12,985 nucleotides of DNA, from positions 1 to 12,985 of the IMG/VR virus record IMGVR_UViG_2645727562_000001; one strand, given 5' to 3'. Positions 1 to 12,985 of this stretch are shown here, in pieces; positions within the stretch are counted from its first letter, which is position 1; each line of letters opens with the position of its first letter. Origin of the DNA: a virus (lineage: Duplodnaviria > Heunggongvirae > Uroviricota > Caudoviricetes). The notes below the pieces were generated by a model that saw nothing but the letters and a program-made list of their open reading frames with translations, made no database searches and had not been told where the DNA came from. Made by a program: the position numbers and the translations under genes.

Positions 1-50
1 CGCTCGACGCTTTCTTTCTGGTATTGAAGGGATTGGGATGGGCTAAGCAT
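1..50 (-). CDS. Start of a further minus-strand nin-region ORF that runs off the left edge
   Basis: ATG (reverse complement of 48-50) overlaps the stop of the upstream ORF at 50-52, continuing the chain of overlapping minus-strand genes. Only about 16 codons are visible. Confidence 0.2.
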   Translation of the reverse strand, partial: MLSPSQSLQYQKESVE

Positions 51-415
51 TATTGGATTCTCTGCATCATGAGAAAGACAATCATGGCGGCGCGGAGGGG
101 ATTTTCATGTATAGCTCGCTTAGATTTACAGTAGGCCACACCGCGTGCACCCCACTCGTCTTCATCGAGATTGATAATGCTAATCCTGTATTTTTCAATA
201 ATCGGCCATGAGTCTGCTGGGTTTGCGCATGGGTTAAAGGATCCGCGCTCAACTTCTACTTCAACTGCGTCTCCGTTTACAATGTCTCCCTCAAATGAGA
301 CAAACACCATATCGCCATTCTCACCTTCTTTGTAATCCGGTGATCCGTTATGAATGGCTTCGAATACCGCCACGTTAATTTCAAAATCACTTAACTGTGA
401 ATAATCCATTGTCAT
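50..415 (-). CDS. Hypothetical nin-region protein, about 121 aa
   Basis: Six-frame ORF 50..451. The internal ATG at 413-415 overlaps the NinE-like stop in an ATGA arrangement, so the likely start is Met13 of the listed ORF (MTMDYSQ...). No family recognised. Confidence 0.5.
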
Positions 416-588
416 TTCCTCGCACGATGTCTTAGCCACCGGATATCCCACAGGTGAGCCGTGTAGTTGAAGGTTTTTACGTCAGATTCTTTTGGGATTG
501 GCTTGCGTTTATTTCTGGAGCGTTTCGTTGGAAGGTATTTGCAGTTTTCGCAGATGATGTCGGTGAAACTTCGTCGCTGTCGCCTCAT
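412..588 (-). CDS. ninE: NinE-like small basic protein, 58 aa
   Basis: Internal Met of ORF 412..678 ([23 protein letters not shown]...[12 protein letters not shown]). Its ATG overlaps the methyltransferase stop (ATGA at 585-588). Position downstream of ninB and the Arg-rich, Cys-containing composition fit a NinE-family protein; assignment is from memory. Confidence 0.45.
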
Positions 589-1112
589 GCCGCCCTCCTG
601 ACGCCCTGCCCGATCGCCATCAATGCCGCTTTGGATACGGTAGTAAACATCCGTCGAGGACTGATGAACGGTCGCCAAATCAGCAGCATGGAGCCTTTGC
701 TGTTTCCCTTCTTCTCCAGCCCTGTCGATGGTTCGATAAAATTAATCCGTCCATCAGTGATAATGCGAACTTCGTCGACACTCTCCAGAGCCTTGCTGAA
801 CCATCCGACTGACATATCCTCTGGCACAAGCATAACTACCGTCTGTCGCTGTTGTATGCACTGCTCAGCGGCTTTTTCCACCCACGGCCTGATATTGCTG
901 TACGGTGGGTTATTCCAGATTGCACCGTGGCTTACCCACTCAGAATTGAGCGCGTCGTCGGCCTCAGTTAGCCAGTGAGCACACAGAGCATTTTTGTCGC
1001 TCGCTGCCGAATCCAGCCAGAATCCAAACTCAATATCCAGTGCATCAAAAAGCCAAAGCGGCGTTTGCCAGCAGTCCTTGTCGTGTGCCGGCGTATTTGA
1101 TTTGATAGTCAT
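585..1112 (-). CDS. Phage orphan DNA N6-adenine methyltransferase (Dam-like)
   Basis: ORF 585..1139 contains the NPPY catalytic motif (..[10 protein letters not shown]..) and a DCWQTP N-terminal motif typical of phage Dam-type N6-adenine methyltransferases. Likely start is ATG 1110-1112 (MTIKSN...), overlapping the ninB stop as ATGA. No restriction enzyme partner is adjacent. Confidence 0.7.
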
Positions 1113-1555
1113 GCAGCCTTCCCTTTTCGTTGTGACCATTCATACTCTCGCCGGGAGTCATCACTCCACCGCACGTTGCGCTCTGAGCCGAACCAAAACA
1201 TGATTTCGATAAGCTCAGTCATGCTGGCCTTTCGCATTTTGCTGGTACGCACGCCAAGCATGACAACGCCACCGTCGATACCAGGAACACTTCGTTGCTC
1301 CAGTTTTTTGGTCTTAAGCCACAGGGCAGTGAACAGGTCTTTCCAGTCTTCCGGTGCCAGCCGTTGACCATGCCATAGCACCTGACGCGAAACATCGTTC
1401 AGCATCGGCCACATACGGTCATTCTGCGCTTTGCTGCGTTTGGGTTCTTTAAGGTGGACTTCGTGGGGTGACTTGTCGTCGATGGGAAGTGAGAGTATTG
1501 CGTCTATGGCGTTATTTCTGATTGCTTCGTTGCGAAGCATGTATATTTGCTTCAT
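1109..1555 (-). CDS. ninB: NinB recombination protein
   Basis: 148-aa product aligns with recalled lambda NinB over the whole length, e.g. DVSRQVLWHGQRLAPEDWK against DVSRQVEWHGRWLDAESWK, and a matching C-terminus [19 protein letters not shown]. Confidence 0.75.
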   Translation of the reverse strand: MKQIYMLRNEAIRNNAIDAILSLPIDDKSPHEVHLKEPKRSKAQNDRMWPMLNDVSRQVLWHGQRLAPEDWKDLFTALWLKTKKLEQRSVPGIDGGVVMLGVRTSKMRKASMTELIEIMFWFGSERNVRWSDDSRREYEWSQRKGKAA

Positions 1556-1841
1556 CGAAATTCTTCTCTTTAATTCCAGCGGATCTGATAGCTTTCATTA
1601 CTGCAATTACCGTTTTGTCTCTCCCATCCTCATAACCCATCGCATAAGCACCTTCTTCACCATCTTTCCAAAAGTCGTCATTCGATTCGGGCCAGTCGAT
1701 ATCCAGTTCAATAGCTGCTCGCGATGCCTGCCATGCCTCCCATGCAATCTCGACCTTGATGTGCATAATCTTCATCACGTCACTTGAAACGTGATATTTG
1801 TTTTTAAACCATTCTTCAAACTGCTTTCTTGATTCGTCCAT
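1512..1841 (-). CDS. Hypothetical acidic protein, 109 aa
   Basis: Intact ORF with a GAGGG Shine-Dalgarno-like motif upstream of the ATG. Its 3' end overlaps the ninB start. No family recognised. Confidence 0.5.
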   Translation of the reverse strand: MDESRKQFEEWFKNKYHVSSDVMKIMHIKVEIAWEAWQASRAAIELDIDWPESNDDFWKDGEEGAYAMGYEDGRDKTVIAVMKAIRSAGIKEKNFDEANIHASQRSNQK

Positions 1842-1858
1842 CGATACTTACCCTCAGT

Positions 1859-2065
1859 TCAACTCACAAAACGCCACGCCATTTTTGCTACAGCGACAGG
1901 CATAACACCGATAATCACCCAGACAAATGCAGCGCCAAACAACGTATACCATGGGTCTTTACCGTCATTCACAAGACGAATGTAGCTATTCAGAACAATA
2001 AAAAACGTCAGAAGAATCCATCCAACGCCAACGCATTTGAATGCGACGAGCATAAACTCAGCCAC
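1859..2065 (-). CDS. Small hydrophobic protein with two predicted transmembrane helices, 64-68 aa
   Basis: ORF 1859..2065 has two long hydrophobic stretches (GVGWILLTFFIVL and FGAAFVWVIIGVMPVAV). GGGGGAGAG lies just upstream of a GTG at 2065; an in-frame ATG is at 2053. It begins immediately after the replication-operon terminator. Confidence 0.4.
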   Translation of the reverse strand: MAEFMLVAFKCVGVGWILLTFFIVLNSYIRLVNDGKDPWYTLFGAAFVWVIIGVMPVAVAKMAWRFVS

Positions 2066-2074
2066 GATTTACTC

Positions 2075-2113
2075 TCCCCCAAATAAAAAGGCCTGCGATT
2101 ACCAGCAGGCCTG
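2075..2113 (-). terminator. Rho-independent terminator ending the O-helicase operon
   Basis: Perfect 8-bp inverted repeat AGGCCTGC...GCAGGCCT (2089-2112). On the minus-strand transcript it is followed by UUUUUAUUU (reverse complement of 2080-2088), about 30 nt after the helicase stop. Confidence 0.5.
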
Positions 2114-2140
2114 TTATTAGCTCAGTGATGTAGATGGTCA

Positions 2141-3577
2141 TCAGAATCCTCCTTTCTTCTTGGACTGCGGTTCCTCGCGTTCACGGCGGCGCATTTCAGC
2201 AGACTGTTGGTCTGTGTCATAAATAGCGCCATTTGCCTGAATGCAATACACCGTGCCGGTATTGCCATGACGATTGAGGCGAAGGATTAGTTCGGTTTCA
2301 CCAGGAGGAACGCTGTCATCAAAAGCGCCTTCACGATGGATCCCCACCCAATAATCGCAATCCTGTTCAATCTGCCCTGTATCTCGTGAGTCACTTGGTA
2401 ATGGGCGTTTATTGGTTCGGCTTTCCAGTGCGCGGTTAAGCTGTGTCAGAAGCACAACAACGCAATCAAGCTCTTTGGCAAGGTTCTTCAGTCCTTTGGT
2501 GATCATGCCGTAAGCAAGGTCGTTGCGATCGGCCTTCTCAGCGGTCATTAGTGTCAGGTAATCGACCAGAATCATGCCAACACATCCTTTTTCTCGCTTG
2601 ATTCGACGGCTTTCGCTGACGATTTGAGCCAGAGATAATCCCGGCGTGTCGTCGATGTAAAGCAGGTCGATTTCACTCAAGCGATTGGCTGTTTCGATCG
2701 CCCTGTTGAAGTCACCATCGTAATCACCCTGATAGCCGTCATCAGCGTCATTTGTCGCCAGAAGGTAAAAAATATTGGGGTTAACACCTGACTTTTGCCC
2801 TACCAGTTTTTCCAGTATCTGGTCACCTGGCATTTCAAGGCTGAACATCAGAGCGGGCTTTTTCTCATGCACTGCGCAGTTGATTGCCATCTGGCTGTAT
2901 AGCGTCGTTTTCCCCATCTTAGGGCGAGCGCCAATGACAAACAAAGAGCCTTTCACCAGACCTTTCGGTGACAGCATCCTGTCCAGCGATGGGATCCCTG
3001 TGCTCATTCCTCGTTGTTCGCCTGACGGGTCAAATCGCTTCTCAAGGTCGCTAACCCAGTCTTCCATGACCTCACCAAATGAGCGAAGGCCGCGACGCGA
3101 TCCGGTTTTTGCATGGTCTGTCAGTTGCGTGAAAATCGCCTGAATAGCTTCGTACTTCTGCGTTGCAGTCATTCCGTTGCGGGAATAGAGCAATTCCGTC
3201 GCTTCAGTCATGCGGTTGATGGCGTAGCGTTCCATTGCGGTTTCACGAACCTGCATTGCATAGGCAACGATGTTTGCTGCGCTTGGCGTGTTCTTTGCGA
3301 TCTCAGCGATATAAGCAAAACCGCCAACAGACTCCGTTAACGATTTACGCTCCAGTTCATCGAAAAGCGTCAGGCCATCTACTGGCTTTTGCTCCCGGTG
3401 CATTATGGTTATTTCTTCGAAAAGGATTTTGTGTGGCCGGCTGTAAAATGAATCAGGCTTCAGCATCGCCAGAACTTTCTGGACGCGCTCACTGCTGTCA
3501 TCATCCAGAAGCAATCCACCAATCACCGCCTGCTCTGCCTCGATGCTATGGGGCGGCGCATAAAAATTATCGGTCAT
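2141..3577 (-). CDS. DnaB-family replicative DNA helicase
   Basis: Product of about 479 aa with an N-terminal DnaB-like domain (IEAEQAVIGGLLLD), Walker A (GARPKMGKTT) and a Walker B-like motif (ILVDYLTLM). ATG at 3575-3577 with GAGGGTG upstream overlaps the O-like gene 3' end; the six-frame track extends to a GTG at 3592. Confidence 0.85.
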   Translation of the reverse strand: MTDNFYAPPHSIEAEQAVIGGLLLDDDSSERVQKVLAMLKPDSFYSRPHKILFEEITIMHREQKPVDGLTLFDELERKSLTESVGGFAYIAEIAKNTPSAANIVAYAMQVRETAMERYAINRMTEATELLYSRNGMTATQKYEAIQAIFTQLTDHAKTGSRRGLRSFGEVMEDWVSDLEKRFDPSGEQRGMSTGIPSLDRMLSPKGLVKGSLFVIGARPKMGKTTLYSQMAINCAVHEKKPALMFSLEMPGDQILEKLVGQKSGVNPNIFYLLATNDADDGYQGDYDGDFNRAIETANRLSEIDLLYIDDTPGLSLAQIVSESRRIKREKGCVGMILVDYLTLMTAEKADRNDLAYGMITKGLKNLAKELDCVVVLLTQLNRALESRTNKRPLPSDSRDTGQIEQDCDYWVGIHREGAFDDSVPPGETELILRLNRHGNTGTVYCIQANGAIYDTDQQSAEMRRREREEPQSKKKGGF

Positions 3578-4532
3578 CGTGTTCACCCTCACGAACTTTC
3601 AGGTAGGTATTATCGTTAAGCAGGAAATCAAATCCCTTTTTGTGCCAGACGGTTCCGCGTTGATGGTTTGGGCGCTCTTCGAACATCCATCGGCAATTTT
3701 CGCCTACGTAGCTCAAATAATTTCTCCAGTCCTGCATCGTGAACCCATGCCCGTCAAGCTGGCGGGTTATCACTCCGGCTTTGCGCCAGAACGTTCGGAT
3801 CTGGTTTTTACGCTTGTCATTCAGTGCGCGGATTCTTGGCGCTTCAGGAAGGATTTCGTGGTAAGCATCGACAACATCCTGACAGCTAACGGAAGGTTTT
3901 TTCTTGTCAGACTTTTTGTCTGCTGCGGTACTCTCTAATACGTCAGTATTAGAGATAATATTATTATATTCTTTATCTGTGGTAATTTGCTGGTAATCTG
4001 CTGGTACAGTATTGCTTGCAGGCATTGGTATTGCTGGCTTTGAGGTGGTAATTTGCTGGTAATCTGCTGGTACAGTATTGCTTGCAGGCATTGGTATTGC
4101 TGGCTTTGAGGTGGTAATTTGCTGGTAATCTGCTGGTACAAAATTTGACTGATAATCGTCATATTTCTCTACCGAGAAAACTGAGAATTTACCGTGTGAA
4201 ACCCAGTCAATCATGCCGAGTTTTTTGAACTTTCTAAGCAGGTACTGAACGCGATCTGGTTTGAGTCCTGTTTCAAACGCCAGAGAGTTTCTACCGCCAA
4301 GTAGCTTCCCTCTGCCTACCAGAATTTCTCCTGCGTCAGTCATTACATACTCAGGCGTATGCTTTGCTTTGAGGATTAAGTGAACCCACAGATGCGCAGC
4401 TTCTGCGTCCTTGTAAAACGGCACATCCATAATTTTACGGTGCAGCAAGGCATACCCCTTACCGCTGCTTTGATGCGGTTGTTGTAGCCTTCTGGCCTCT
4501 CTGGCTTCGGCTAGATTAGATATGTTACTCAT
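3567..4532 (-). CDS. Replication initiator, lambda O-like, with internal tandem 22-aa repeats
   Basis: 321-aa ORF in the O position, immediately upstream of and overlapping the helicase gene. The central region has three copies of [22 protein letters not shown] encoded by the 66-bp DNA repeats. The conserved-looking C-terminal domain fits phage replication initiators. Confidence 0.7.
3979..4139. repeat. About 2.4 tandem copies of a 66-bp unit containing TGCTGGTA-type sub-repeats; putative replication origin iterons
   Basis: Exact 66-bp periodicity (copies begin at 3979, 4045 and 4111). Each unit holds several TGCTGGTA-like short repeats. A strongly AT-rich stretch lies next to it at 3935-3978. 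Iterons followed by an AT-rich region inside the initiator gene is the lambda ori architecture. Confidence 0.6.
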
Positions 4533-4671
4533 GACCTTTCTCCTTCTGCATCAGCTTCACTTTTTCCAACTCAGCCCGGAATCGACCAGGCTGCTTGAAG
4601 CTGGACAGGAAGCGATCACGTAGTATGTGTTTGTGAATTTTGTCCTGGTAAGGACTGAGTTGTTTTGTCAT
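4525..4671 (-). CDS. Unlisted small ORF between cII and the O-like gene, 48 aa, basic
   Basis: Reverse-complement reading gives AGGAG, six nt, then ATG (4669-4671): [48 protein letters not shown]. Its stop overlaps the O-like start codon. Below the length cutoff of the supplied track. Confidence 0.3.
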
Positions 4672-4703
4672 AATTACTCCTGTGGATTGATCCAGTAATT
4701 CCC

Positions 4704-5000
4704 TCAGAATTGCATATCAATTTGCTTAAAATCCTCGGTGGCGGCCGGGGATTTTTTCTTTGTGATTTCATCAAGCGCATACTTAAAAGCCCTGCTAATC
4801 GGACTGATGTCTGATGCCATTCCGAAAGCACACAAGACCGAAGCAATAAATCTCCAGTCCGTTCTGCTTATCTTCGATTCATGACAGCCAATCATCTTTG
4901 CCAGACCGCGCTGGGTAAGTGTTGATAGGTTGATGAGTAAATCTGTTTCTGCGCGATCAACGTCACGCTGTGATAGTTTGCTGTAACTTGTTCGTTCCAT
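4704..5000 (-). CDS. cII: CII-like transcriptional activator (divergent from lambda CII)
   Basis: 98 aa in the position downstream of cro and nutR. C-terminus [18 protein letters not shown] resembles lambda CII NKKRPAATERSEQIQMEF, and a central HTH-like segment is present. Confidence 0.7.
4741..4770 (+). ncRNA. 3' terminator hairpin of a putative OOP-like antisense RNA overlapping the cII 3' end
   Basis: Plus-strand hairpin ATCCTCGGTGGCGGCCGGGGAT (4741-4762) followed by TTTTTTCTTT, antisense to the last roughly 20 codons of cII. This is the position and form of the lambda OOP RNA terminator. The 5' end and promoter are not confidently placed. Confidence 0.4.
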
Positions 5001-5085
5001 TTCTTAAGATTTCCAATAGTGAATAGTTAGTTGAAAGGTATGCGTGGAAACGCATATGGCCTTAGTTGGTCAGATATCTTGGGAC

Positions 5086-5131
5086 TCGCTTTGTCAGCGA
5101 CGTAGGACGAATGTCCATTGTGAAAATAGCG
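5086..5131 (-). promoter_or_regulatory. nutR: boxA-like CGCTATTTT and boxB hairpin with GACAA loop
   Basis: On the minus-strand transcript just after the cro stop: CGCTATTTT (reverse complement of 5123-5131) lies where lambda has boxA CGCTCTTAC, then UCGCU-GACAA-AGCGA (reverse complement of 5086-5100). The same hairpin recurs at nutL. The loop matches the P22-type boxB as recalled. Confidence 0.5.
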
Positions 5132-5138
5132 GTGTTAC

Positions 5139-5348
<210 letters not shown>

Positions 5349-5363
5349 TTAGTACATGCAACC

Positions 5364-5392
5364 ATTATCACCGCTAGAGGTAAAATAGTCAA
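5364..5392 (-). promoter_or_regulatory. pR promoter driving cro
   Basis: Minus-strand -35 TTGACT (reverse complement of 5387-5392) and -10 GATAAT (reverse complement of 5364-5369), overlapping OR1/OR2 exactly as in lambda. Confidence 0.85.
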
Positions 5393-5404
5393 CACGCACG
5401 GTGT

Positions 5405-5429
<25 letters not shown>
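5366..5429. promoter_or_regulatory. Right operator OR1-OR2-OR3, lambda type
   Basis: Three 17-bp operator half-palindromes: OR1 5366-5382 (TATCACCGCTAGAGGTA), OR2 5390-5406 (CAACACGCACGGTGTTA), OR3 5413-5429 (TATCCCTTGCGGTGATA). OR2 and OR3 match lambda; OR1 differs at one position from the canonical sequence as recalled. Confidence 0.9.
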
Positions 5430-6153
<724 letters not shown>

Positions 6154-6160
6154 CACGTAA

Positions 6161-6598
6161 ATGATTAAAGAACGTATTTCTTATATCATTCCGATTGCGA
6201 TGGATGAAGGCAACCCAGTAACTCCAGTTCTTATCTATGAAATGGATAAAGACTCCCATGAAGTGGATCTATCATTTGGCGCTTTTTTTATCGGCCTTAA
6301 GGCTACAAAAAAATATTCCATAGGCATTGAGGTTTTCAATGCTCAAGAAATACCGATACCAATTGACACAAAACTGTACTCCAACCATAAGTTTTTTACG
6401 GTAGCAGAAGCCAACGATGGAGAAACCATCGTATCAACTTCTATGAGAATTAACTTCCCAAGGGTGAAAATTATCAAGCCTGGGATATTCGAAGTTAGAG
6501 CATCACTGGTTAATCCTGATAAAGGCGAAGTAATTGATGTAAAAAGTTCGTTTTTTGACGTGAAGATAACAGGATCAGTTCGCGATGAGTTTAGATAA
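6161..6598 (+). CDS. Unknown soluble protein, 145 aa; first gene of the cargo cassette in the rexA position
   Basis: ORF starts 8 nt after the cI stop codon. Markedly AT-rich compared with cI. No transmembrane segment or recognisable catalytic motif; alternating hydrophobic pattern suggests a beta-rich fold. The downstream gene overlaps it by 14 nt. Confidence 0.6.
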   Translation: MIKERISYIIPIAMDEGNPVTPVLIYEMDKDSHEVDLSFGAFFIGLKATKKYSIGIEVFNAQEIPIPIDTKLYSNHKFFTVAEANDGETIVSTSMRINFPRVKIIKPGIFEVRASLVNPDKGEVIDVKSSFFDVKITGSVRDEFR

Positions 6599-6956
6599 CA
6601 AGGTTGCTCAGCTTCGTCCAAATCAAAACATATCTCGCCCAATTGGACACTATTCCACTGATGATGCATACTCACGGCATGGTGGAGGAAACGGCGGAGG
6701 TAACATGCTTGAGGCTAGAGTTGCAAAGCTAGAGTCTGATGTTGAATACATCAAGCGCGATCTCGCTGAAGTAAAGTCAGATATAAAATCTGTAGATTCT
6801 CGTCTGTCAGGTATTGAGACAAGCATTAGCTCAGCAAAAATCACCATCAAGGCATCTGCGGTCGTTGTCAGTTTCGTGTTCGCATTTTGCGCCTACATTT
6901 TTGGAAGTTATGTTTCCAAAATCCTTGATGCCTTAAACGGACTCGTTCTTAAGTAA
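6585..6956 (+). CDS. Coiled-coil protein with a single C-terminal transmembrane helix (XhlA-like architecture); second cargo gene in the rexB position
   Basis: The 123-aa ORF overlaps the upstream gene. An alternative ATG at 6705 is preceded by GGAGG at a 4-nt spacing and would give an 83-aa product starting MLEARVAKLESD. Features: Gly-rich low-complexity N-terminus (HGGGNGGGN), heptad-like coiled coil (LEARVAKLESDVEYIKRDLAEVKSDIKSVDSRLSGIE), then a hydrophobic anchor (ASAVVVSFVFAFCAYIFGSYV). Confidence 0.6.
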   Translation: MSLDNKVAQLRPNQNISRPIGHYSTDDAYSRHGGGNGGGNMLEARVAKLESDVEYIKRDLAEVKSDIKSVDSRLSGIETSISSAKITIKASAVVVSFVFAFCAYIFGSYVSKILDALNGLVLK

Positions 6957-6962
6957 CACACA

Positions 6963-6990
6963 ACCCGGCCTCAGCGCCGGGTTTTCTTTG
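6963..6990 (+). terminator. Rho-independent terminator of the cI-cargo operon (tImm-like)
   Basis: Stem ACCCGGC / GCCGGGT with a 6-nt loop, followed by TTTCTTTG, 7 nt after the cargo stop codon. The flanking sequence resembles the lambda region between rexB and OL as recalled. Confidence 0.6.
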
Positions 6991-7146
6991 CCTCACGATC
7001 CCCTTCACCCAATAACACATAACCAATTGTATTTATTTGAAAATTAATAGATACAACTCACTAAACATCGCAATTCAGATCTCTCGATCACCTCCCAAGC
7101 CACACACCCCTGCAAAAAAATAAATCTATATAAAAAACATACAGAT

Positions 7147-7209
7147 AACCATCTGCGGTGATAAATTATCTCTGGCGGTGTTGACATAAATACCACTGGC
7201 GGTGATACT
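7147..7209 (+). promoter_or_regulatory. Left operator OL3-OL2-OL1 with pL promoter, lambda type
   Basis: OL3 7147-7163 (AACCATCTGCGGTGATA), OL2 7167-7183 (TATCTCTGGCGGTGTTG), OL1 7191-7207 (TACCACTGGCGGTGATA). pL -35 TTGACA 7181-7186 and -10 GATACT 7204-7209. Matches the canonical lambda pL/OL sequence; pL reads rightward in this window. Confidence 0.92.
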
Positions 7210-7277
7210 AAACACATCAGCAGGACGCACTACTCACCAGGGCGGTGAATATACAACGATTCGAATATGAATCTACG

Positions 7278-7292
7278 GCGCTGACAAAGCGC
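7278..7292 (+). promoter_or_regulatory. nutL boxB hairpin (GCGCU-GACAA-AGCGC)
   Basis: Perfect 5-bp stem with 5-nt GACAA loop about 60 nt downstream of the pL start, matching the hairpin at nutR and the P22-type boxB as recalled. No convincing boxA is seen upstream. Confidence 0.55.
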
Positions 7293-7302
7293 AATAACCA
7301 AA

Positions 7303-7445
7303 GTGAACTTTGGGGTGTGGTGAAGGGTTCATGGACGGGAATATGTCGCACGTAAAGCGGCGAGGCCTGCGGGACTATTGCCGAATTGAAGTAGGCCGAA
7401 ACAGGTCGAAATGGGTCTCCCACCTACCACACCACCAAAGTTCAT
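7303..7445 (+). promoter_or_regulatory. Long-range stem in the N leader, adjacent to the N ribosome-binding site (RNase III-site analogue)
   Basis: TGAACTTTGGGGTGTGGTG (7303-7322) is complementary to CACCACACCACCAAAGTTCA (about 7425-7444) with one bulge, enclosing about 100 nt. The N Shine-Dalgarno GGAGG (7448-7452) lies directly 3' of the stem. Lambda has an analogous GGGGTGTGTG / CACACACCACC leader stem. Confidence 0.5.
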
Positions 7446-7457
7446 CAGGAGGTCTAT

Positions 7458-7841
7458 ATGACACGCAGAACTCAGTTCAAAGGCAATTCACGTTCTCGTC
7501 GTCGTGAGCGTTTAAAGGCAAAGGCATTAGCTAACGGCGTACTGGCCCGCGAAGAAGCAATAAGTTCAGAAGTATTACACCGCCCTACTCTAAGCAGAGC
7601 GCAGATTCAGGCTAAAGGTACTCACGAAACGCCTGAGCGCATAGAAGACGCTAAGCCAATTAAGTTCATGGCACAGGACGTGATCTGGCAACAGAAAGAA
7701 TACAGACGCAATCTGGAGAGAGCGGCCATTGTGTACGCGAATGAGTTTGGGCATAGGCAACCAGAAACTGGTGTATGTCTTCCAAATGTAGCTCTTTACG
7801 CGGCAGGCTACAGGAAATCAAAACAACTGACGGCGAGGTAA
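7458..7841 (+). CDS. N: N-family transcription antiterminator, non-lambda type
   Basis: 127-aa protein directly downstream of pL and nutL with GGAGG Shine-Dalgarno. N-terminal arginine-rich motif (GNSRSRRRERLKAKALA). C-terminus LPNVALYAAGYRKSKQLTAR resembles the P22 N-like (gp24) C-terminus as recalled. Not similar to lambda N. Confidence 0.85.
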   Translation: MTRRTQFKGNSRSRRRERLKAKALANGVLAREEAISSEVLHRPTLSRAQIQAKGTHETPERIEDAKPIKFMAQDVIWQQKEYRRNLERAAIVYANEFGHRQPETGVCLPNVALYAAGYRKSKQLTAR

Positions 7842-7843
7842 TT

Positions 7844-8236
7844 ATGGGTCAGGAAGAAAAATATGAGCTTAAAAAGCTCATTGAAGAAGACGCCATAGAA
7901 GAAATTGCAGCATTAACAACAGCTATAAATAATATTAGGTATGCGCTAAATACGCTTATCTCCTCATGCGACAAAAATAGCAGGGAATTTTTGATACTTG
8001 GCGCAGCTCTAGGAATAGTTGATGCGGCAACGCTTCACCTAATTACTCATGACGATATTCTTATTGAGCCGTATGAAACATTACTGCTTGTCAGGCAAAA
8101 AATGGCTGATGCCGCAGCAAATGGAGACCTTCAACTTTACATCGACTTAAGGAAAGTATTAAGGCGAATGGTCAGAACTGAAGGAGATATCCCACTGAGC
8201 GATGCTAAACAAGGCATACAAGCAAAGCTGGAATGA
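7844..8236 (+). CDS. Hypothetical helical protein, 130 aa, AT-rich, immediately downstream of N
   Basis: ATG at 7844, 2 nt after the N stop, preceded by GAGG (MGQEEKYELKKLIEE...). The supplied ORF 7775..8236 overlaps N in another frame, so the shorter start is preferred. AT-rich codon usage. No family recognised. Confidence 0.55.
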   Translation: MGQEEKYELKKLIEEDAIEEIAALTTAINNIRYALNTLISSCDKNSREFLILGAALGIVDAATLHLITHDDILIEPYETLLLVRQKMADAAANGDLQLYIDLRKVLRRMVRTEGDIPLSDAKQGIQAKLE

Positions 8237-8296
8237 CCATTATCCTGATGAAGTATCGAAAGCACAGTCAGCAATTAGCAAAGCTCTTGGGGAAGA

Positions 8297-8457
8297 ATGA
8301 TGAATAAGAAATACATTGTTGAAGTTATAGAGCGAGAAACGAAAGAAGTAATCAAACATTTCGAATTTGATAATTATAGAAAACCTGACCGCGTAGAAGA
8401 AGGATTGTTGCGACAAAGTAATCTCGAAAAATTTGATGTTGTCATGCGATGCGAATA
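8297..8457 (+). CDS. Unlisted small ORF, 53 aa
   Basis: GGGGAAGA then ATGATG at 8297: MMNKKYIVEVIERETKEVIKHFEFDNYRKPDRVEEGLLRQSNLEKFDVVMRCE. AT-rich. Below the track length cutoff. Confidence 0.35.
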
Positions 8458-8551
8458 AGCGCCTATAGCAGATTTACGAGTCTGCTATGTGAGCAATGTC
8501 GCTCGTAACTAAACAGGAGCCGACTTGTTCTGATTATTGGAAATCTTCTTT

Positions 8552-8578
8552 GCCCTCCAGTGTGAGGGCCTTTTTATA
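8552..8578 (+). terminator. Rho-independent terminator within the pL operon (tL1-like)
   Basis: Stem GCCCTC / GAGGGC with a 6-nt loop (8552-8569) followed by CTTTTTAT, lying between the small post-N genes and the cIII-like gene. Presumably read through by N-modified polymerase. Confidence 0.55.
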
Positions 8579-8641
8579 TGCATACCAATAACGCTTCACT
8601 CGAGGCGTTTTCGTTATGCAATCAAACAGAAGGAGCATCCT

Positions 8642-8812
8642 ATGCAACAGTTCGCTATTGCAGGGGCGGCATCGGTTCGCCCTTTCAACCCGATTTTATC
8701 GGTGCAGCATTCACGAAAAAATATTTTAACCGGAGCAGACTTTAAACAACCTCGCGTTAAGAGCTTGCTGGATCGTCTTGTTGAGTTTCTGAATCAAAAG
8801 GTACAGCCATGA
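8642..8812 (+). CDS. cIII: CIII-like protein (putative FtsH inhibitor), 56 aa
   Basis: Internal start of ORF 8537..8812 with AGGAG 7 nt upstream; the listed N-terminal extension spans the terminator. N-terminus MQQFAIAG resembles lambda CIII MQYAIAG, and there is an amphipathic segment (KSLLDRLVEFLNQ). Similarity beyond the N-terminus is weak. Confidence 0.5.
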   Translation: MQQFAIAGAASVRPFNPILSVQHSRKNILTGADFKQPRVKSLLDRLVEFLNQKVQP

Positions 8813-8973
8813 AAAAACCAACTTACGAGGAACTGGAAGAAGCCCTGAAAGAGCTTAGAAGAATGGCTTTCGCCAGACGCACTAACTCTCACAACTGCGG
8901 CCCATTTCAGTACTCTGATTTATGCGAGGACATCATTGAGGTAACTCAACTGATTAAGGTCGTTAAGCAATGA
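8809..8973 (+). CDS. Unlisted small ORF, 54 aa, in the kil position
   Basis: ATGA overlap with the cIII-like stop. Product MKKPTYEELEEALKELRRMAFARRTNSHNCGPFQYSDLCEDIIEVTQLIKVVKQ. No similarity to lambda Kil as recalled. Confidence 0.35.
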   Translation: MKKPTYEELEEALKELRRMAFARRTNSHNCGPFQYSDLCEDIIEVTQLIKVVKQ

Positions 8974-9077
8974 GCATTGCGGATACATGGTCAGACGAAG
9001 AATTCATTCGTCAGATGAAAGAAATGCTCAATCAGCACAAAGAACAGGAGAAAGATGATGATTCTGACTCTGAATGA
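8970..9077 (+). CDS. Unlisted very small acidic ORF, 35 aa
   Basis: ATGA overlap with the previous ORF (MSIADTWSDEEFIRQMKEMLNQHKEQEKDDDSDSE). Its 3' end overlaps the next gene's start region. Weak support. Confidence 0.2.
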   Translation: MSIADTWSDEEFIRQMKEMLNQHKEQEKDDDSDSE

Positions 9078-9366
9078 TAAGCGTGAAATATCGCAAATCA
9101 TCGCAAGTTTTACCGATGAAGATTACGAACGAATCAACAGTGAAGTTGATCGTCTCTGCAAACGTTGCGACCCAATAAGCGAAATGCTTCGCTCATATAA
9201 ACCAGATGAACACACTAAGGACGCTATCGACTGGCTGGAAGATGATGACTGTAACTATCAGGAAAAAGCCGCTGAATGGTTCTGGGATGCAATAACCGAA
9301 AGAGTTAAGGCTGAATATGCCTTCGCAATATTCAAACGCAGACATATTTATGGAGAAGCTGCATGA
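9055..9366 (+). CDS. Hypothetical protein, 103 aa
   Basis: AGGAG 5 nt upstream of ATGATG at 9055. Its stop overlaps the RecT start as ATGA. No family recognised. Confidence 0.5.
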   Translation: MMILTLNDKREISQIIASFTDEDYERINSEVDRLCKRCDPISEMLRSYKPDEHTKDAIDWLEDDDCNYQEKAAEWFWDAITERVKAEYAFAIFKRRHIYGEAA

Positions 9367-10265
9367 GCAATATCGTTGAATTCGTTAAACAGCAAGAGCA
9401 GTTATTCTGCGGAGCATTGACTGAACAGACGGTGACATGGGCTAAGGAAAGCCAGTTTGCAATTCAGTATTTCCAGAAAAACGATTACCTGGCTAAAACA
9501 GCACTGGCAAATCCAACCAGCGCACAGAACGCCATCATCAATGTTGCGGCGATCGGCATCACCTTAAACCCGGCCAGCAAACTGGCTTATCTGGTTCCTC
9601 GCGACGGCATGGTGTGCCTTGATATCAGTTACATGGGATTACTTCATCTTGCGCAATCGACAGGATCAATTAAGTGGGGGCAATGCAAACTGGTGTACTC
9701 AAACGACACCTATGAATCAAATGGCCTTGATTCAGCACCAACCCACAAATACAACGCATTTGGTGAGCGAGGCTCTATTGTTGGAGGTTATTGCACGGTT
9801 AAAACAGCAGATGGTGACTACCTGACTGAAGAAATGAGTCTGGCAGAAATTAAAGCTGTGGAAGCAACGAGCAAGGCAAAGAATGGACCGTGGAAAACAT
9901 TCTGGGAAGAGATGGCGCGTAAAACAATAGTTAAACGCGCCAGCAAATACTGGCCTAAAGCCCAGCGACTGGATAATGCCATTCACCTTCTTAACGAAGA
10001 TGAAGGTATGCATCAGGAACCAGTTATGCCGCACAAATCAGAGGAAGATATCCGCGAAGATGAACGGAAACGCCAGCAGGAAATAATGGATAAAGCACAA
10101 CTTCTTTGCGATGAAATGGCTCAGGCAGAAAACATGGATGATTTGAAGCGATATTTTGCAGAAGCATATCGCCTGACATCTGGAATGAAATTGCAGCAGA
10201 ACGTACAAGCCATTTACATAGAATGCAAAGCGAAGCTGGAGGTTGCCAGTGAGCAAACTGTATGA
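9363..10265 (+). CDS. recT: RecT-family single-strand annealing recombinase
   Basis: 300-aa product. C-terminal segment NGPWKTFWEEMARKTIVKRASKYWP aligns with Rac RecT NGPWVTHWEEMAKKTAIRRLFKYLP as recalled. Occupies the bet position of the pL operon. Confidence 0.8.
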   Translation: MSNIVEFVKQQEQLFCGALTEQTVTWAKESQFAIQYFQKNDYLAKTALANPTSAQNAIINVAAIGITLNPASKLAYLVPRDGMVCLDISYMGLLHLAQSTGSIKWGQCKLVYSNDTYESNGLDSAPTHKYNAFGERGSIVGGYCTVKTADGDYLTEEMSLAEIKAVEATSKAKNGPWKTFWEEMARKTIVKRASKYWPKAQRLDNAIHLLNEDEGMHQEPVMPHKSEEDIREDERKRQQEIMDKAQLLCDEMAQAENMDDLKRYFAEAYRLTSGMKLQQNVQAIYIECKAKLEVASEQTV

Positions 10266-10731
10266 AATTGCCAATGAATACGCAAAATTGATGGATTCAG
10301 ATTTAGAGCCAGAGATGATTGCTGACACAATAGAAGGCATGGAAGGAGAATTTACCGATAAAATAGAGCAACTTCTTGCCATTATTAAAAATGAATCTGG
10401 TTATGCTGAACGCCTCAAGGACGAGGCAAAGTCACTGAATGAACGAGCAGCAGTAATTCAAAATAAGATTGATAGCATTATGGCATATATAGCGTCATCG
10501 CTTGAAATGGTTGGCAAGAAAAAGATTCGAGCAGGTATTCACCAGGTAACAATCCGCAAACCGTCAGAAACTGTAGAAATCATCGACTCAAGCGCCATTC
10601 CTCCTGAATACGTTGAGTTTGAAACGACAATTAAAGCCGACAAGTTGGCAATCAAACACCAACTAAAAGCAGGAATAAATATCCCCGGCGCTCAACTCAA
10701 AGTTGGGAAACCTTCACTTCTTATCAAATAA
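10249..10731 (+). CDS. Coiled-coil protein, possibly siphovirus Gp157-like, about 160 aa
   Basis: ORF 10243..10731. GGAGG (10237-10241) precedes a GTG at 10249, which is the preferred start; the first in-frame ATG is at 10291. Family assignment is tentative and from memory. Confidence 0.45.
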   Translation: MSKLYEIANEYAKLMDSDLEPEMIADTIEGMEGEFTDKIEQLLAIIKNESGYAERLKDEAKSLNERAAVIQNKIDSIMAYIASSLEMVGKKKIRAGIHQVTIRKPSETVEIIDSSAIPPEYVEFETTIKADKLAIKHQLKAGINIPGAQLKVGKPSLLIK

Positions 10732-10742
10732 CGGTATCGCCT

Positions 10743-11057
10743 ATGAAAAAGACTCCATGGGAGAAATGGGAAGTCGATTTCTTGCGCGAAGTAGCGGCGA
10801 CAATGCCAGTTGAAGTTATCGCTGAAAAACTGGAAAGGACTGAAAAAGCAGTTATGGCGAAAGCAACAAGGATTGGCGCTGACATTGTTAGCCGACTTCG
10901 TGGAAGACGCTGGACAAGAGCCGAAGTATCACTTTTCGGTAAGTTCTCCGCAGAAGAAATAGCAATTGCAACCTGCCGCTCAATTTATTCAGTAAGAGCT
11001 ATGCGATACAAGCTAAAAAAACTCGATGAAGAAAGAGCAGGCATACAAATAAATTAA
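10743..11057 (+). CDS. Hypothetical basic protein, 104 aa, with two similar helical half-repeats
   Basis: Intact ORF. Internal duplication-like pattern (W..W/E..L......E.IA......RT/S..A.......) suggests a tandem helix-turn-helix-like fold. Inference only. Confidence 0.45.
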   Translation: MKKTPWEKWEVDFLREVAATMPVEVIAEKLERTEKAVMAKATRIGADIVSRLRGRRWTRAEVSLFGKFSAEEIAIATCRSIYSVRAMRYKLKKLDEERAGIQIN

Positions 11058-11073
11058 CATGGAGTAATTAACA

Positions 11074-11355
11074 ATGAAGCTAAACATCGACCTCGGCAAA
11101 TACGTTATTACCGGAACCAAATACGATCTGATTCTTAGCGAAAGAGGAATTATCAAAGAAGGCGAGAATGCAGGGAAAGAAACACTAAGCCGTATCGGTT
11201 ATTACAGCAAGTTTGAGCATCTGGTTAAAGAGTTATGCAACCGTGAAATCCTGTTATCTCAGGCGCAGACGCTACAGGATATTCAGCAGCATATCGAGAC
11301 TTTAGGTGTGTCACTTAGCATGGCTATTGACCAGTTCGTGGAGAGTAAATCATGA
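11074..11355 (+). CDS. Hypothetical protein, 93 aa
   Basis: Intact ORF with GGAG-like motif upstream. Its stop overlaps the next small ORF as ATGA. Confidence 0.5.
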
Positions 11356-11516
11356 GAGGTCTTGCATACAATCCCGGCATTCTTCCGGCAGAAATGATTA
11401 TTCGCCAACGCGTAAAGCCAATGCCATCGAGAGAGGAATTGCTTAAGAGAAATTCTTTTCCATCAGTGAATCAAAACAAATATCTGAATGCGATGTGGCG
11501 GAGTGGGAAGAAATGA
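11352..11516 (+). CDS. Unlisted small ORF, 54 aa
   Basis: ATGA overlap at both ends (start 11352, stop 11514-11516 overlapping the ATG at 11513): [54 protein letters not shown]. Confidence 0.3.
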
Positions 11517-11989
11517 AACAAATGTCACTAATTGAGATGGATGGATTTCTGAAAGGTAAATGCATCCCAAGTGATTTAAAGGTTAACGAAACAAACGCTG
11601 AATATCTGGTGCGTAAGTTCGGTGAACTTGAATCAAAACTAGAAACAGCGTTGCGTGAGTGTCGTTCTGCTGGAATCACGATTGATAACCTTGAGGCTAA
11701 ATGCGCGAAGATGGCTGCTGAAAATACCTCACTTAAGCAATCTGAGAAGGAATTTAATGACTTTTGTCGTGAGGAGTTTAGCGAATGGGAAGATGATGTT
11801 ACTGAAACCCCAGCCACCGATGCTTTTCTGGCTGAAGTACGGGCGCAGGCGTTTAATGACCTTTGCTCGGCGTTCGTTAAACACGCGAATCTCGCGGGAA
11901 TGGATGATGGTGAGCTAGTGAGGCTTAAATATGCGACGGACGCCCTGCTGCATTGTGCGGAACAGCTTCGCAAAGGAGTTCAGTCATGA
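11513..11989 (+). CDS. Hypothetical acidic helical protein, about 158 aa
   Basis: ORF 11495..11989. Preferred start is ATG 11513 ([12 protein letters not shown]...), overlapping the upstream stop. Its stop overlaps the next ATG. Confidence 0.5.
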
Positions 11990-12219
11990 GCATCCGAACT
12001 GAACATGGATTTGGTCCTTCAACGGTCGAAGTCGAATGGCTTGATGATTGCCCTAAGTGCCAGCACGGCAAAGCCAAGGTAACAGGATGGTCGGTAACCA
12101 AAGATTCTTTGTGGGCGGGTGATGAGGCCGTTTGTTCCAAATGCGGTCACAAAGGTGAAATCGATGCTGATGGAGAGAATGCCTGGGTGGAATGGGACGA
12201 AATCGAGGAGGCACAATGA
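11986..12219 (+). CDS. Small zinc-ribbon protein, 77 aa (two CxxC pairs)
   Basis: Internal ATG of ORF 11953..12219 overlapping the upstream stop (ATGA). Contains CPKC and CSKC motifs about 30 residues apart. Confidence 0.5.
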   Translation: MSIRTEHGFGPSTVEVEWLDDCPKCQHGKAKVTGWSVTKDSLWAGDEAVCSKCGHKGEIDADGENAWVEWDEIEEAQ

Positions 12220-12971
12220 GCAACATCGACATCGACACACTGGCGCTGCGTGAGGCGGCAGAACGTGCAATTCCGGCAATGGAACGCCTGTTAATGTTGC
12301 CAGCTGATGATGATTTGTTAACTGAACAGGAACTTAAGGATTACGGTGTGGATATTGATGCGCTCAACGCCTTCAAATTTCTGACCGGACCAGAAACCGT
12401 GTTGGCACTACTGGATGAACGGGAAAGAAACCAGCAATACATCAAACGCCGCGACCAGGAGAACGAGGATATTGCGCTAACGGTAGGGAAGCTGAGAGTT
12501 GAGCTTGAGGAAGTAAAACAACACGCTGAAGAATTATCCGAAACCAAGGCTGTTCGTAACCAATGGCGGCCAGATCTTTGCCCAATAACCGGACGTGCAT
12601 TTTTCATGTGGATTGAGCATCCAACATTGGGAAATGTGCCGACATATGGTGGCCCATTAGATAGTTACACCATTCCAACAAAGGACGGTGACGGTGAGTT
12701 TTCATGTGAGCGTTACGATCATGATTTTGGCGGTTGGGTAGAAAGCGAATGTCTTGGGTTATATCTGATTGATGATAGAGAACAATGCAGGGTCTACGAA
12801 CTGGAGGAACGCGTTAAGGAACTGGATGCTCGGGAAATATCGCTCCCGGAACGTAGCAGCATGCTTCATCGAACAGATTTTCACGATGATTACCAAACGG
12901 TAATGGCATACAAAGTTTCTGAAGTCATCGATGCAATCCGCGCTACTGGCATTCGCATCAAAGGAGAGTGA
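12216..12971 (+). CDS. Ead/Ea22-like family protein, about 251 aa
   Basis: GAGGAGG precedes the ATG at 12216 (MSNIDIDTLALREAAE...), which overlaps the upstream stop. N-terminal coiled-coil and acidic composition fit the Ead/Ea22-like proteins common in enterobacterial lambdoid prophages; assignment is from memory. Confidence 0.5.
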   Translation: MSNIDIDTLALREAAERAIPAMERLLMLPADDDLLTEQELKDYGVDIDALNAFKFLTGPETVLALLDERERNQQYIKRRDQENEDIALTVGKLRVELEEVKQHAEELSETKAVRNQWRPDLCPITGRAFFMWIEHPTLGNVPTYGGPLDSYTIPTKDGDGEFSCERYDHDFGGWVESECLGLYLIDDREQCRVYELEERVKELDAREISLPERSSMLHRTDFHDDYQTVMAYKVSEVIDAIRATGIRIKGE

Positions 12972-12985
12972 TATGAGCGCTATAA

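Follow-up and report, generated by a model that had tools for sequence, protein, structure and literature searches.

Does a one-base departure from phage lambda in OR1, accompanied by amino-acid changes in CI and Cro, mark a newly mutated genetic switch or an allele inherited with the immunity region? The question is raised by a 12,985-nucleotide stretch of DNA from a virus of the Caudoviricetes (positions 1 to 12,985 of IMG/VR record IMGVR_UViG_2645727562_000001; hereafter the window). An earlier note, which compared the sequence with a remembered lambda, had reported these differences and had allowed that they might reflect ordinary variation within the lambda family.

Organization of the immunity region

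The immunity region of the window is oriented opposite to the lambda map, with cro (66 residues, positions 5139 to 5339) on the minus strand, cI (237 residues, 5440 to 6153) on the plus strand, and 100 bp between them. The positions of operators and promoters follow the annotation of mEp234 (EF120460), which is identical to the window over the OR stretch. OR1 (5366 to 5382), OR2 (5390 to 5406) and OR3 (5413 to 5429) are all placed on the minus strand, and this annotation shows that the segment 5366 to 5382 singled out in the earlier note is exactly OR1. The pR promoter (minus strand, 5357 to 5392) comprises a -35 hexamer at 5387 to 5392, a 17-bp spacer, a -10 hexamer at 5364 to 5369 and a start at 5357. 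The pRM promoter (plus strand, 5405 to 5440) has its -35 hexamer at 5405 to 5410 and its -10 hexamer at 5428 to 5433, as in lambda, and its transcript is leaderless, with the start at the cI ATG (5440). The second operator cluster, on the plus strand at 7147 to 7207, consists of OL3 (7147 to 7163), OL2 (7167 to 7183) and OL1 (7191 to 7207), the same as in mEp234, and the mEp234 annotation puts the pL hexamers at 7181 to 7186 (-35) and 7204 to 7209 (-10). With a CI, a Cro and six operators of lambda type and spacing, the window is assigned by sequence to the lambda immunity group.

Homology to lambda is confined to 5125 to 6149 (cro to cI), 6962 to 7239 (terminator, OL and pL) and a 71-bp match outside the immunity region, at 2072 to 2142. 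At the rex slot, in cII and N and in the replication genes, the window has types other than those of lambda, and the same mosaic structure is seen in wild imm-lambda records. In a search with the whole window, no phage record exceeded 46% coverage and no complete E. coli genome exceeded 70%; taken as a whole (1 to 12985), the window is a novel mosaic.

Several features of this mosaic can be described alongside the switch. The lambda immunity module is combined with a DnaB-like helicase, RecT, Gp157-like and Ea22-like proteins and an N of HK97/Stx type. Two plus-strand open reading frames at 6161 to 6956 replace rexA and rexB, between the cI stop codon and the Timm/OL segment. The first (145 residues, phrog_5893, function unknown) had no Pfam or PADLOC hit, and the second (123 residues, phrog_6136, likewise of unknown function) has a weak XhlA-like coiled coil at residues 42 to 88 and a hydrophobic C-terminus. 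Since both are placed for co-transcription with cI from pRM in a lysogen, they are a candidate lysogen-expressed exclusion or moron pair. In an O-like replication initiator (321 residues, 3567 to 4532, minus strand), a block of 22 residues is perfectly duplicated in tandem and is followed by a third, partial copy; by analogy with lambda O, these repeats may reflect origin iterons inside the gene.

OR1 differs from lambda at one base

Positions 5330 to 5450 were aligned exactly with lambda (NC_001416), and also with HK97 and mEp234. The window differs from lambda at 2 of these 121 bases. At 5375 it has T and lambda has C, so that on the pR strand OR1 reads TACCTCTAGCGGTGATA in the window and TACCTCTGGCGGTGATA in lambda, a match at 16 of 17 positions. 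At 5446 it has G for the A of lambda, which changes cI codon 3 from ACA to GCA. The spacing of the OR sites and all promoter hexamers are the same as in lambda. The alignment thus confirms the single-base difference in OR1 that the earlier note had claimed, together with the identity of OR2, OR3 and OL1 to OL3 to their lambda counterparts: five of the six operators are unchanged and OR1 is the sole exception.

Read on the pR strand, the change is G to A at position 8 of the non-consensus half-site, which is proximal to the -35 hexamer of pR, and it adjoins the dyad centre of the operator. The same base is position -18 of pR, inside the spacer. Direct reading of the twelve half-sites of lambda itself shows G, T or C at position 8, which is therefore one of the least constrained positions. 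By direct reading, too, lambda OR1 (TACCTCTGG...) and OR3 (TATCCCTTG...) differ solely at half-site positions 3, 5 and 8, so that position 8 is one of the three that let CI and Cro distinguish the two sites. By way of the N-terminal arm of CI, this position probably has a part in determining which site the repressor prefers.

CI and Cro carry three substitutions

The CI of the window is identical to lambda CI at 235 of 237 residues. The only substitutions are T3A and K71N (base 5652), or T2A and K70N in the numbering of the mature protein, and they correspond to the MSA and ILNVSV motifs picked out before the alignment was made; the gene has 15 synonymous changes besides, one of them in the stop codon. 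Lambda CI has the same helix-turn-helix and, over its full length, the same LexA-like C-terminal domain of self-cleavage and dimerisation. T2A lies in the flexible N-terminal DNA-binding arm, over the operator centre, and K70N falls between helices 4 and 5, outside the helix-turn-helix.

Cro matches lambda Cro at 65 of 66 residues, with three synonymous changes in the gene and K39N as the only substitution (codon AAG to AAT, base 5223), which accounts for the AGRN noted in place of AGRK. The recognition-helix residues are as in lambda and residues 26 to 38 are unaltered; K39N falls just past this helix. Lys39 probably makes a backbone contact; no mention of its role was found in two open papers on Cro. 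The solved structures of CI and Cro all have the lambda-reference residues.

An error in sequencing or assembling the window, or a wrong reference in the earlier note, has virtually no chance of being the explanation, since the alignment with NC_001416 bears out the reference as given there and the same bases occur in many independent records. Every difference listed in the earlier note is real.

The same alleles occur together in wild phages

HK97, mEp234 and HK106 match the window at all four variant sites (OR1-A, CI Ala3, CI Asn71 and Cro Asn39). Over cro-OR-cI, the nucleotide identity of the window to these three phages is 99.6 to 99.7%, versus 97.8% to lambda. The variant OR1 is found in seven of eight named wild lambda-immunity phages (HK97, mEp234, HK106, CL707, HK244, HK542 and mEp332). 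Only HK544 among the eight has the lambda G, which is also present in lambda itself and in Shigella phage SfI. CI Ala3 occurs in 7/8 and CI Asn71 in 5/8 of these phages, and Cro Asn39 is restricted among the named isolates to HK97, mEp234 and HK106. The GenBank records of wild phages annotate the same OR1 sequence as operator oR1 for Cro and CI. Detailed annotation of the immunity region is held in records EF120455 to EF120461, which, judging by accession series and content, we infer to belong to Degnan et al. 2007.

The OR1 change and the CI and Cro changes are thus an already known natural allele set, the HK97-type imm-lambda haplotype, and the suggestion of natural variation within the lambda family is borne out. 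With high confidence, we interpret the locus as an imm-lambda module of HK97/mEp234/HK106 haplotype in an otherwise non-lambda mosaic lambdoid prophage, its four changes being inherited natural polymorphisms and not new mutations.

OR1-A is common in prophages

We scanned IMG/VR for the OR1-OR2 41-mer with either base and obtained 118 loci, 102 of them with intact cro, OR and cI. As counts conditioned on an otherwise exact OR1-OR2, and hence not unbiased frequencies, 72/102 loci have OR1-A and 30/102 have OR1-G. The exact four-site haplotype of the window was found in 28/102 loci and the full lambda combination (OR1-G, Cro Lys39, CI Thr3 and CI Lys71) in 15/102. A lambda-type OR is present in 608 of 5426 complete E. 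coli genomes. Under the same conditioning, and with the same reservation about frequencies, the exact 41-mer occurs with A in 175 of these genomes and with the lambda G in 166. A further 39 complete genomes have the OR of mEp332 type, also with A, so that OR1-A is found in at least 214 genomes versus 166 with the lambda allele. A prophage in E. coli NCCP 13717 matches the cro-OR-cI sequence of the window at 100% identity, and one in EPEC E2348/69 matches it at 99.7%. Sequenced prophages have OR1-A no less often than the reference form, and among isolated wild phages and in IMG/VR it is the commoner of the two. These counts, too, speak for natural variation.

As a natural allele already catalogued for the best-studied of genetic switches, the variant has little discovery value in itself. 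The OR1, CI and Cro of the lambda reference are not the commonest natural forms, so that a departure from them in a prophage scan is not to be taken for a mutation.

The distribution also bears on a different explanation, in which OR1 carries an operator-constitutive or virulence-type lesion, like the OR1 mutations of lambda vir, that weakens repression of pR. Such a lesion would fit an altered base in the highest-affinity CI site, overlapping pR. However, the base lies at the least conserved half-site position and not at the strongly contacted positions 2, 4, 5 and 6. Moreover, OR1-A is carried by hundreds of resident prophages of complete E. coli genomes, and also by temperate phages that form lysogens and share the immunity of lambda, which in practice excludes a lesion of this type; we regard it as extremely improbable. 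An operator-constitutive mutant is recognized by a loss of repression that prevents stable lysogeny or permits growth on a lysogen, and the presence of OR1-A in those E. coli genomes and IMG/VR loci argues against such a loss.

Two further groups of loci were seen in the IMG/VR scan. Three loci (L037, L092 and L103) have divergent CI and Cro beside an OR1-OR2 41-mer that is the same as that of lambda. Their CI departs from lambda CI at about 50 residues, several of which lie in or around the helix-turn-helix, and their Cro has about 10 substitutions; they may represent a sister lineage in which the lambda operators were retained although the repressors changed greatly. An intact lambda-type OR is also found next to a frameshifted or truncated cro (L082 and L121) or cI (L106), presumably in decaying prophages or through assembly errors.

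Divergence and linkage across cro-OR-cI

Between the cro stop and the cI stop, the window and lambda differ at 22 of 1015 bases. Of these differences, 18 are synonymous and three non-synonymous, with the remaining one in the 100-bp operator region, a distribution that points to long-standing natural divergence of a working switch kept under strong purifying selection. A recent regulatory mutation is not signalled by this pattern.

The changes could alternatively be a matched set, in which OR1-A, CI T2A (with K70N) and Cro K39N were retuned together, and a shift in OR1 occupancy or pR strength gave an induction threshold other than that of laboratory lambda. Co-adaptation of this kind would predict the associations observed in IMG/VR, where CI Ala3 accompanies OR1-A in 71/72 loci and OR1-G in 15/30 (Fisher p = 6e-9), and Cro Asn39 is on OR1-A in 28/29 (p = 2e-4). 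The involvement of a base that both discriminates OR1 from OR3 and stands at -18 of pR favors it as well, as does the textbook location of T2A in the arm over the operator centre. Against this, the sites are physically close. The OR1 base is 71 bp from CI codon 3 and 152 bp from the Cro39 codon, the amino-acid sites spanning 71 to 277 bp, and all four gametes are present among the IMG/VR loci for OR1 with Cro39 and for OR1 with CI71. Linkage disequilibrium, computed over 58 unique haplotypes, gave r2 values with the OR1 base of 0.35 for CI3, 0.21 for CI71 and 0.09 for Cro39, versus approximately 0.1 to 0.25 for synonymous positions of these genes. The only value above the synonymous range is that of CI codon 3, the site nearest to the OR1 base. 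We therefore rejected linkage disequilibrium as positive evidence of co-adaptation, the values for Cro39 and CI71 being no larger than those of their synonymous neighbors.

The supposed set is also broken up in nature, since the lambda-immunity phages HK244 and HK542 combine OR1-A with both Cro Lys39 and CI Lys71, and CL707 and mEp332 combine it with Cro Lys39. Only one of the six operators is altered, and a saturation mutagenesis of the CI arm by Clarke et al. 1991 is reported to have found any residue acceptable at positions 1 and 2. Because linkage to the OR1 base is mostly no stronger than that to nearby synonymous sites, co-adapted retuning is left without specific support and is decidedly unlikely. 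Haplotype linkage is a sufficient explanation for the association of the OR1, CI and Cro alleles, in agreement with their inheritance as natural polymorphisms of a single module.

Expected effect on the switch

In a natural module of this kind, CI dimers would bind cooperatively to OR1 and OR2, repressing pR and activating pRM as in lambda, and Cro would act on the same OR sites with the order of preference reversed. Both proteins would also act at the unchanged OL. The variant base falls in the less tightly read half of OR1 and the amino-acid changes fall outside both recognition helices, so that specificity should be kept. On these grounds of sequence, we expect immunity specificity to be unchanged and any shift in the occupancy of OR1 or the strength of pR to be small at most. 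A large defect of OR1-A is ruled out, since the allele is carried by stable prophages and by phages that were collected as homoimmune with lambda, and any functional effect is probably small. The altered repression and induction set-point that the earlier note envisaged would accordingly be minor, if present.

A modest quantitative effect is nevertheless plausible, as the base combines position -18 of pR with a position that discriminates OR1 from OR3. A small shift in the affinity of CI or Cro, or in the strength of pR, is possible. The discrimination of OR1 from OR3 by CI and Cro is the stated subject of Hochschild, Douhan & Ptashne 1986. Concerning the promoter, residue R451 of sigma70 was shown by Singh et al. 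2011 to lie close to position -18 of the non-template strand. In the same study, the sigma70-dependent activity of the cbpA promoter rose when its -18 base was replaced by A, T or C, with an increase from 95 to 221 units (approximately 2.3-fold) for -18A. Since the derivatives are A, T and C, the wild-type cbpA base must be G. By analogy, the strength of pR, already high, might be raised slightly by OR1-A.

The OR1 G to A change is absent from the pR mutant library of Lagator et al. 2017 (PMC5481185), which does include G to T at residue 32. The source-data table of that study was not used, its numbering being mismatched with the mutant list; in this table, one single-mutant value repeats under mutants with no mutation in common. 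The lambda CI measurements of Sedhom & Solomon 2023 (PMC10742460) were made on VT2-Sa and Stx2-I operators, which differ in sequence from those of the window and are uninformative for its OR1.

A more far-reaching reading is that the haplotype of laboratory lambda (OR1-G, CI T2/K70, Cro K39) is itself derived and atypical. The form prevalent in the wild, with OR1-A at pR -18 and with or without Cro N39, would then differ measurably in pR strength or OR1 occupancy, and hence in its spontaneous-induction rate or SOS set-point. We think this rather unlikely. If the effect of the base at -18 and half-site position 8 proved measurable, it would provide a natural handle on the quantitative drift that the lambda switch tolerates.

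Comparison with known systems

The closest known systems are HK97 (NC_002167), mEp234 (EF120460) and HK106 (EF120461). All three have the OR1 of the window, TACCTCTAGCGGTGATA, together with the same Cro and CI proteins and the same OR2, OR3 and OL1 to OL3, and both their nutR side and their N/nutL side are of the window's type. They differ from it in the replication and recombination modules and in the slot between cI and OL, which is occupied by hicAB and one open reading frame in mEp234 and HK106, by Gp48 and Gp49 in HK97, and by the phrog_5893 and phrog_6136 reading frames in the window.

The other lambda-immunity phages resemble the window in part. CL707, HK244, HK542 and mEp332 have OR1-A and CI Ala3 as in the window, and CL707 and mEp332 have CI Asn71 as well, whereas HK244 and HK542 keep CI Lys71. 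HK544 and SfI have the lambda OR1, and these six phages, unlike the window, all have Cro Lys39.

Lambda (NC_001416/J02459) has a common architecture with the window, consisting of cro, pR with OR1 to OR3 and pRM, a leaderless cI, and Timm-OL-pL. It departs from the window at OR1 position 8, Cro residue 39, CI residues 3 and 71 and 18 synonymous sites. Its rexA and rexB are replaced in the window, and its cII, O, P and N are of other types. The classical virulence mutations of lambda OR1 are likewise one-base substitutions within OR1/pR. Those alleles were selected for escape from the repressor, whereas the allele of the window lies at the least conserved half-site position and is common in resident prophages.
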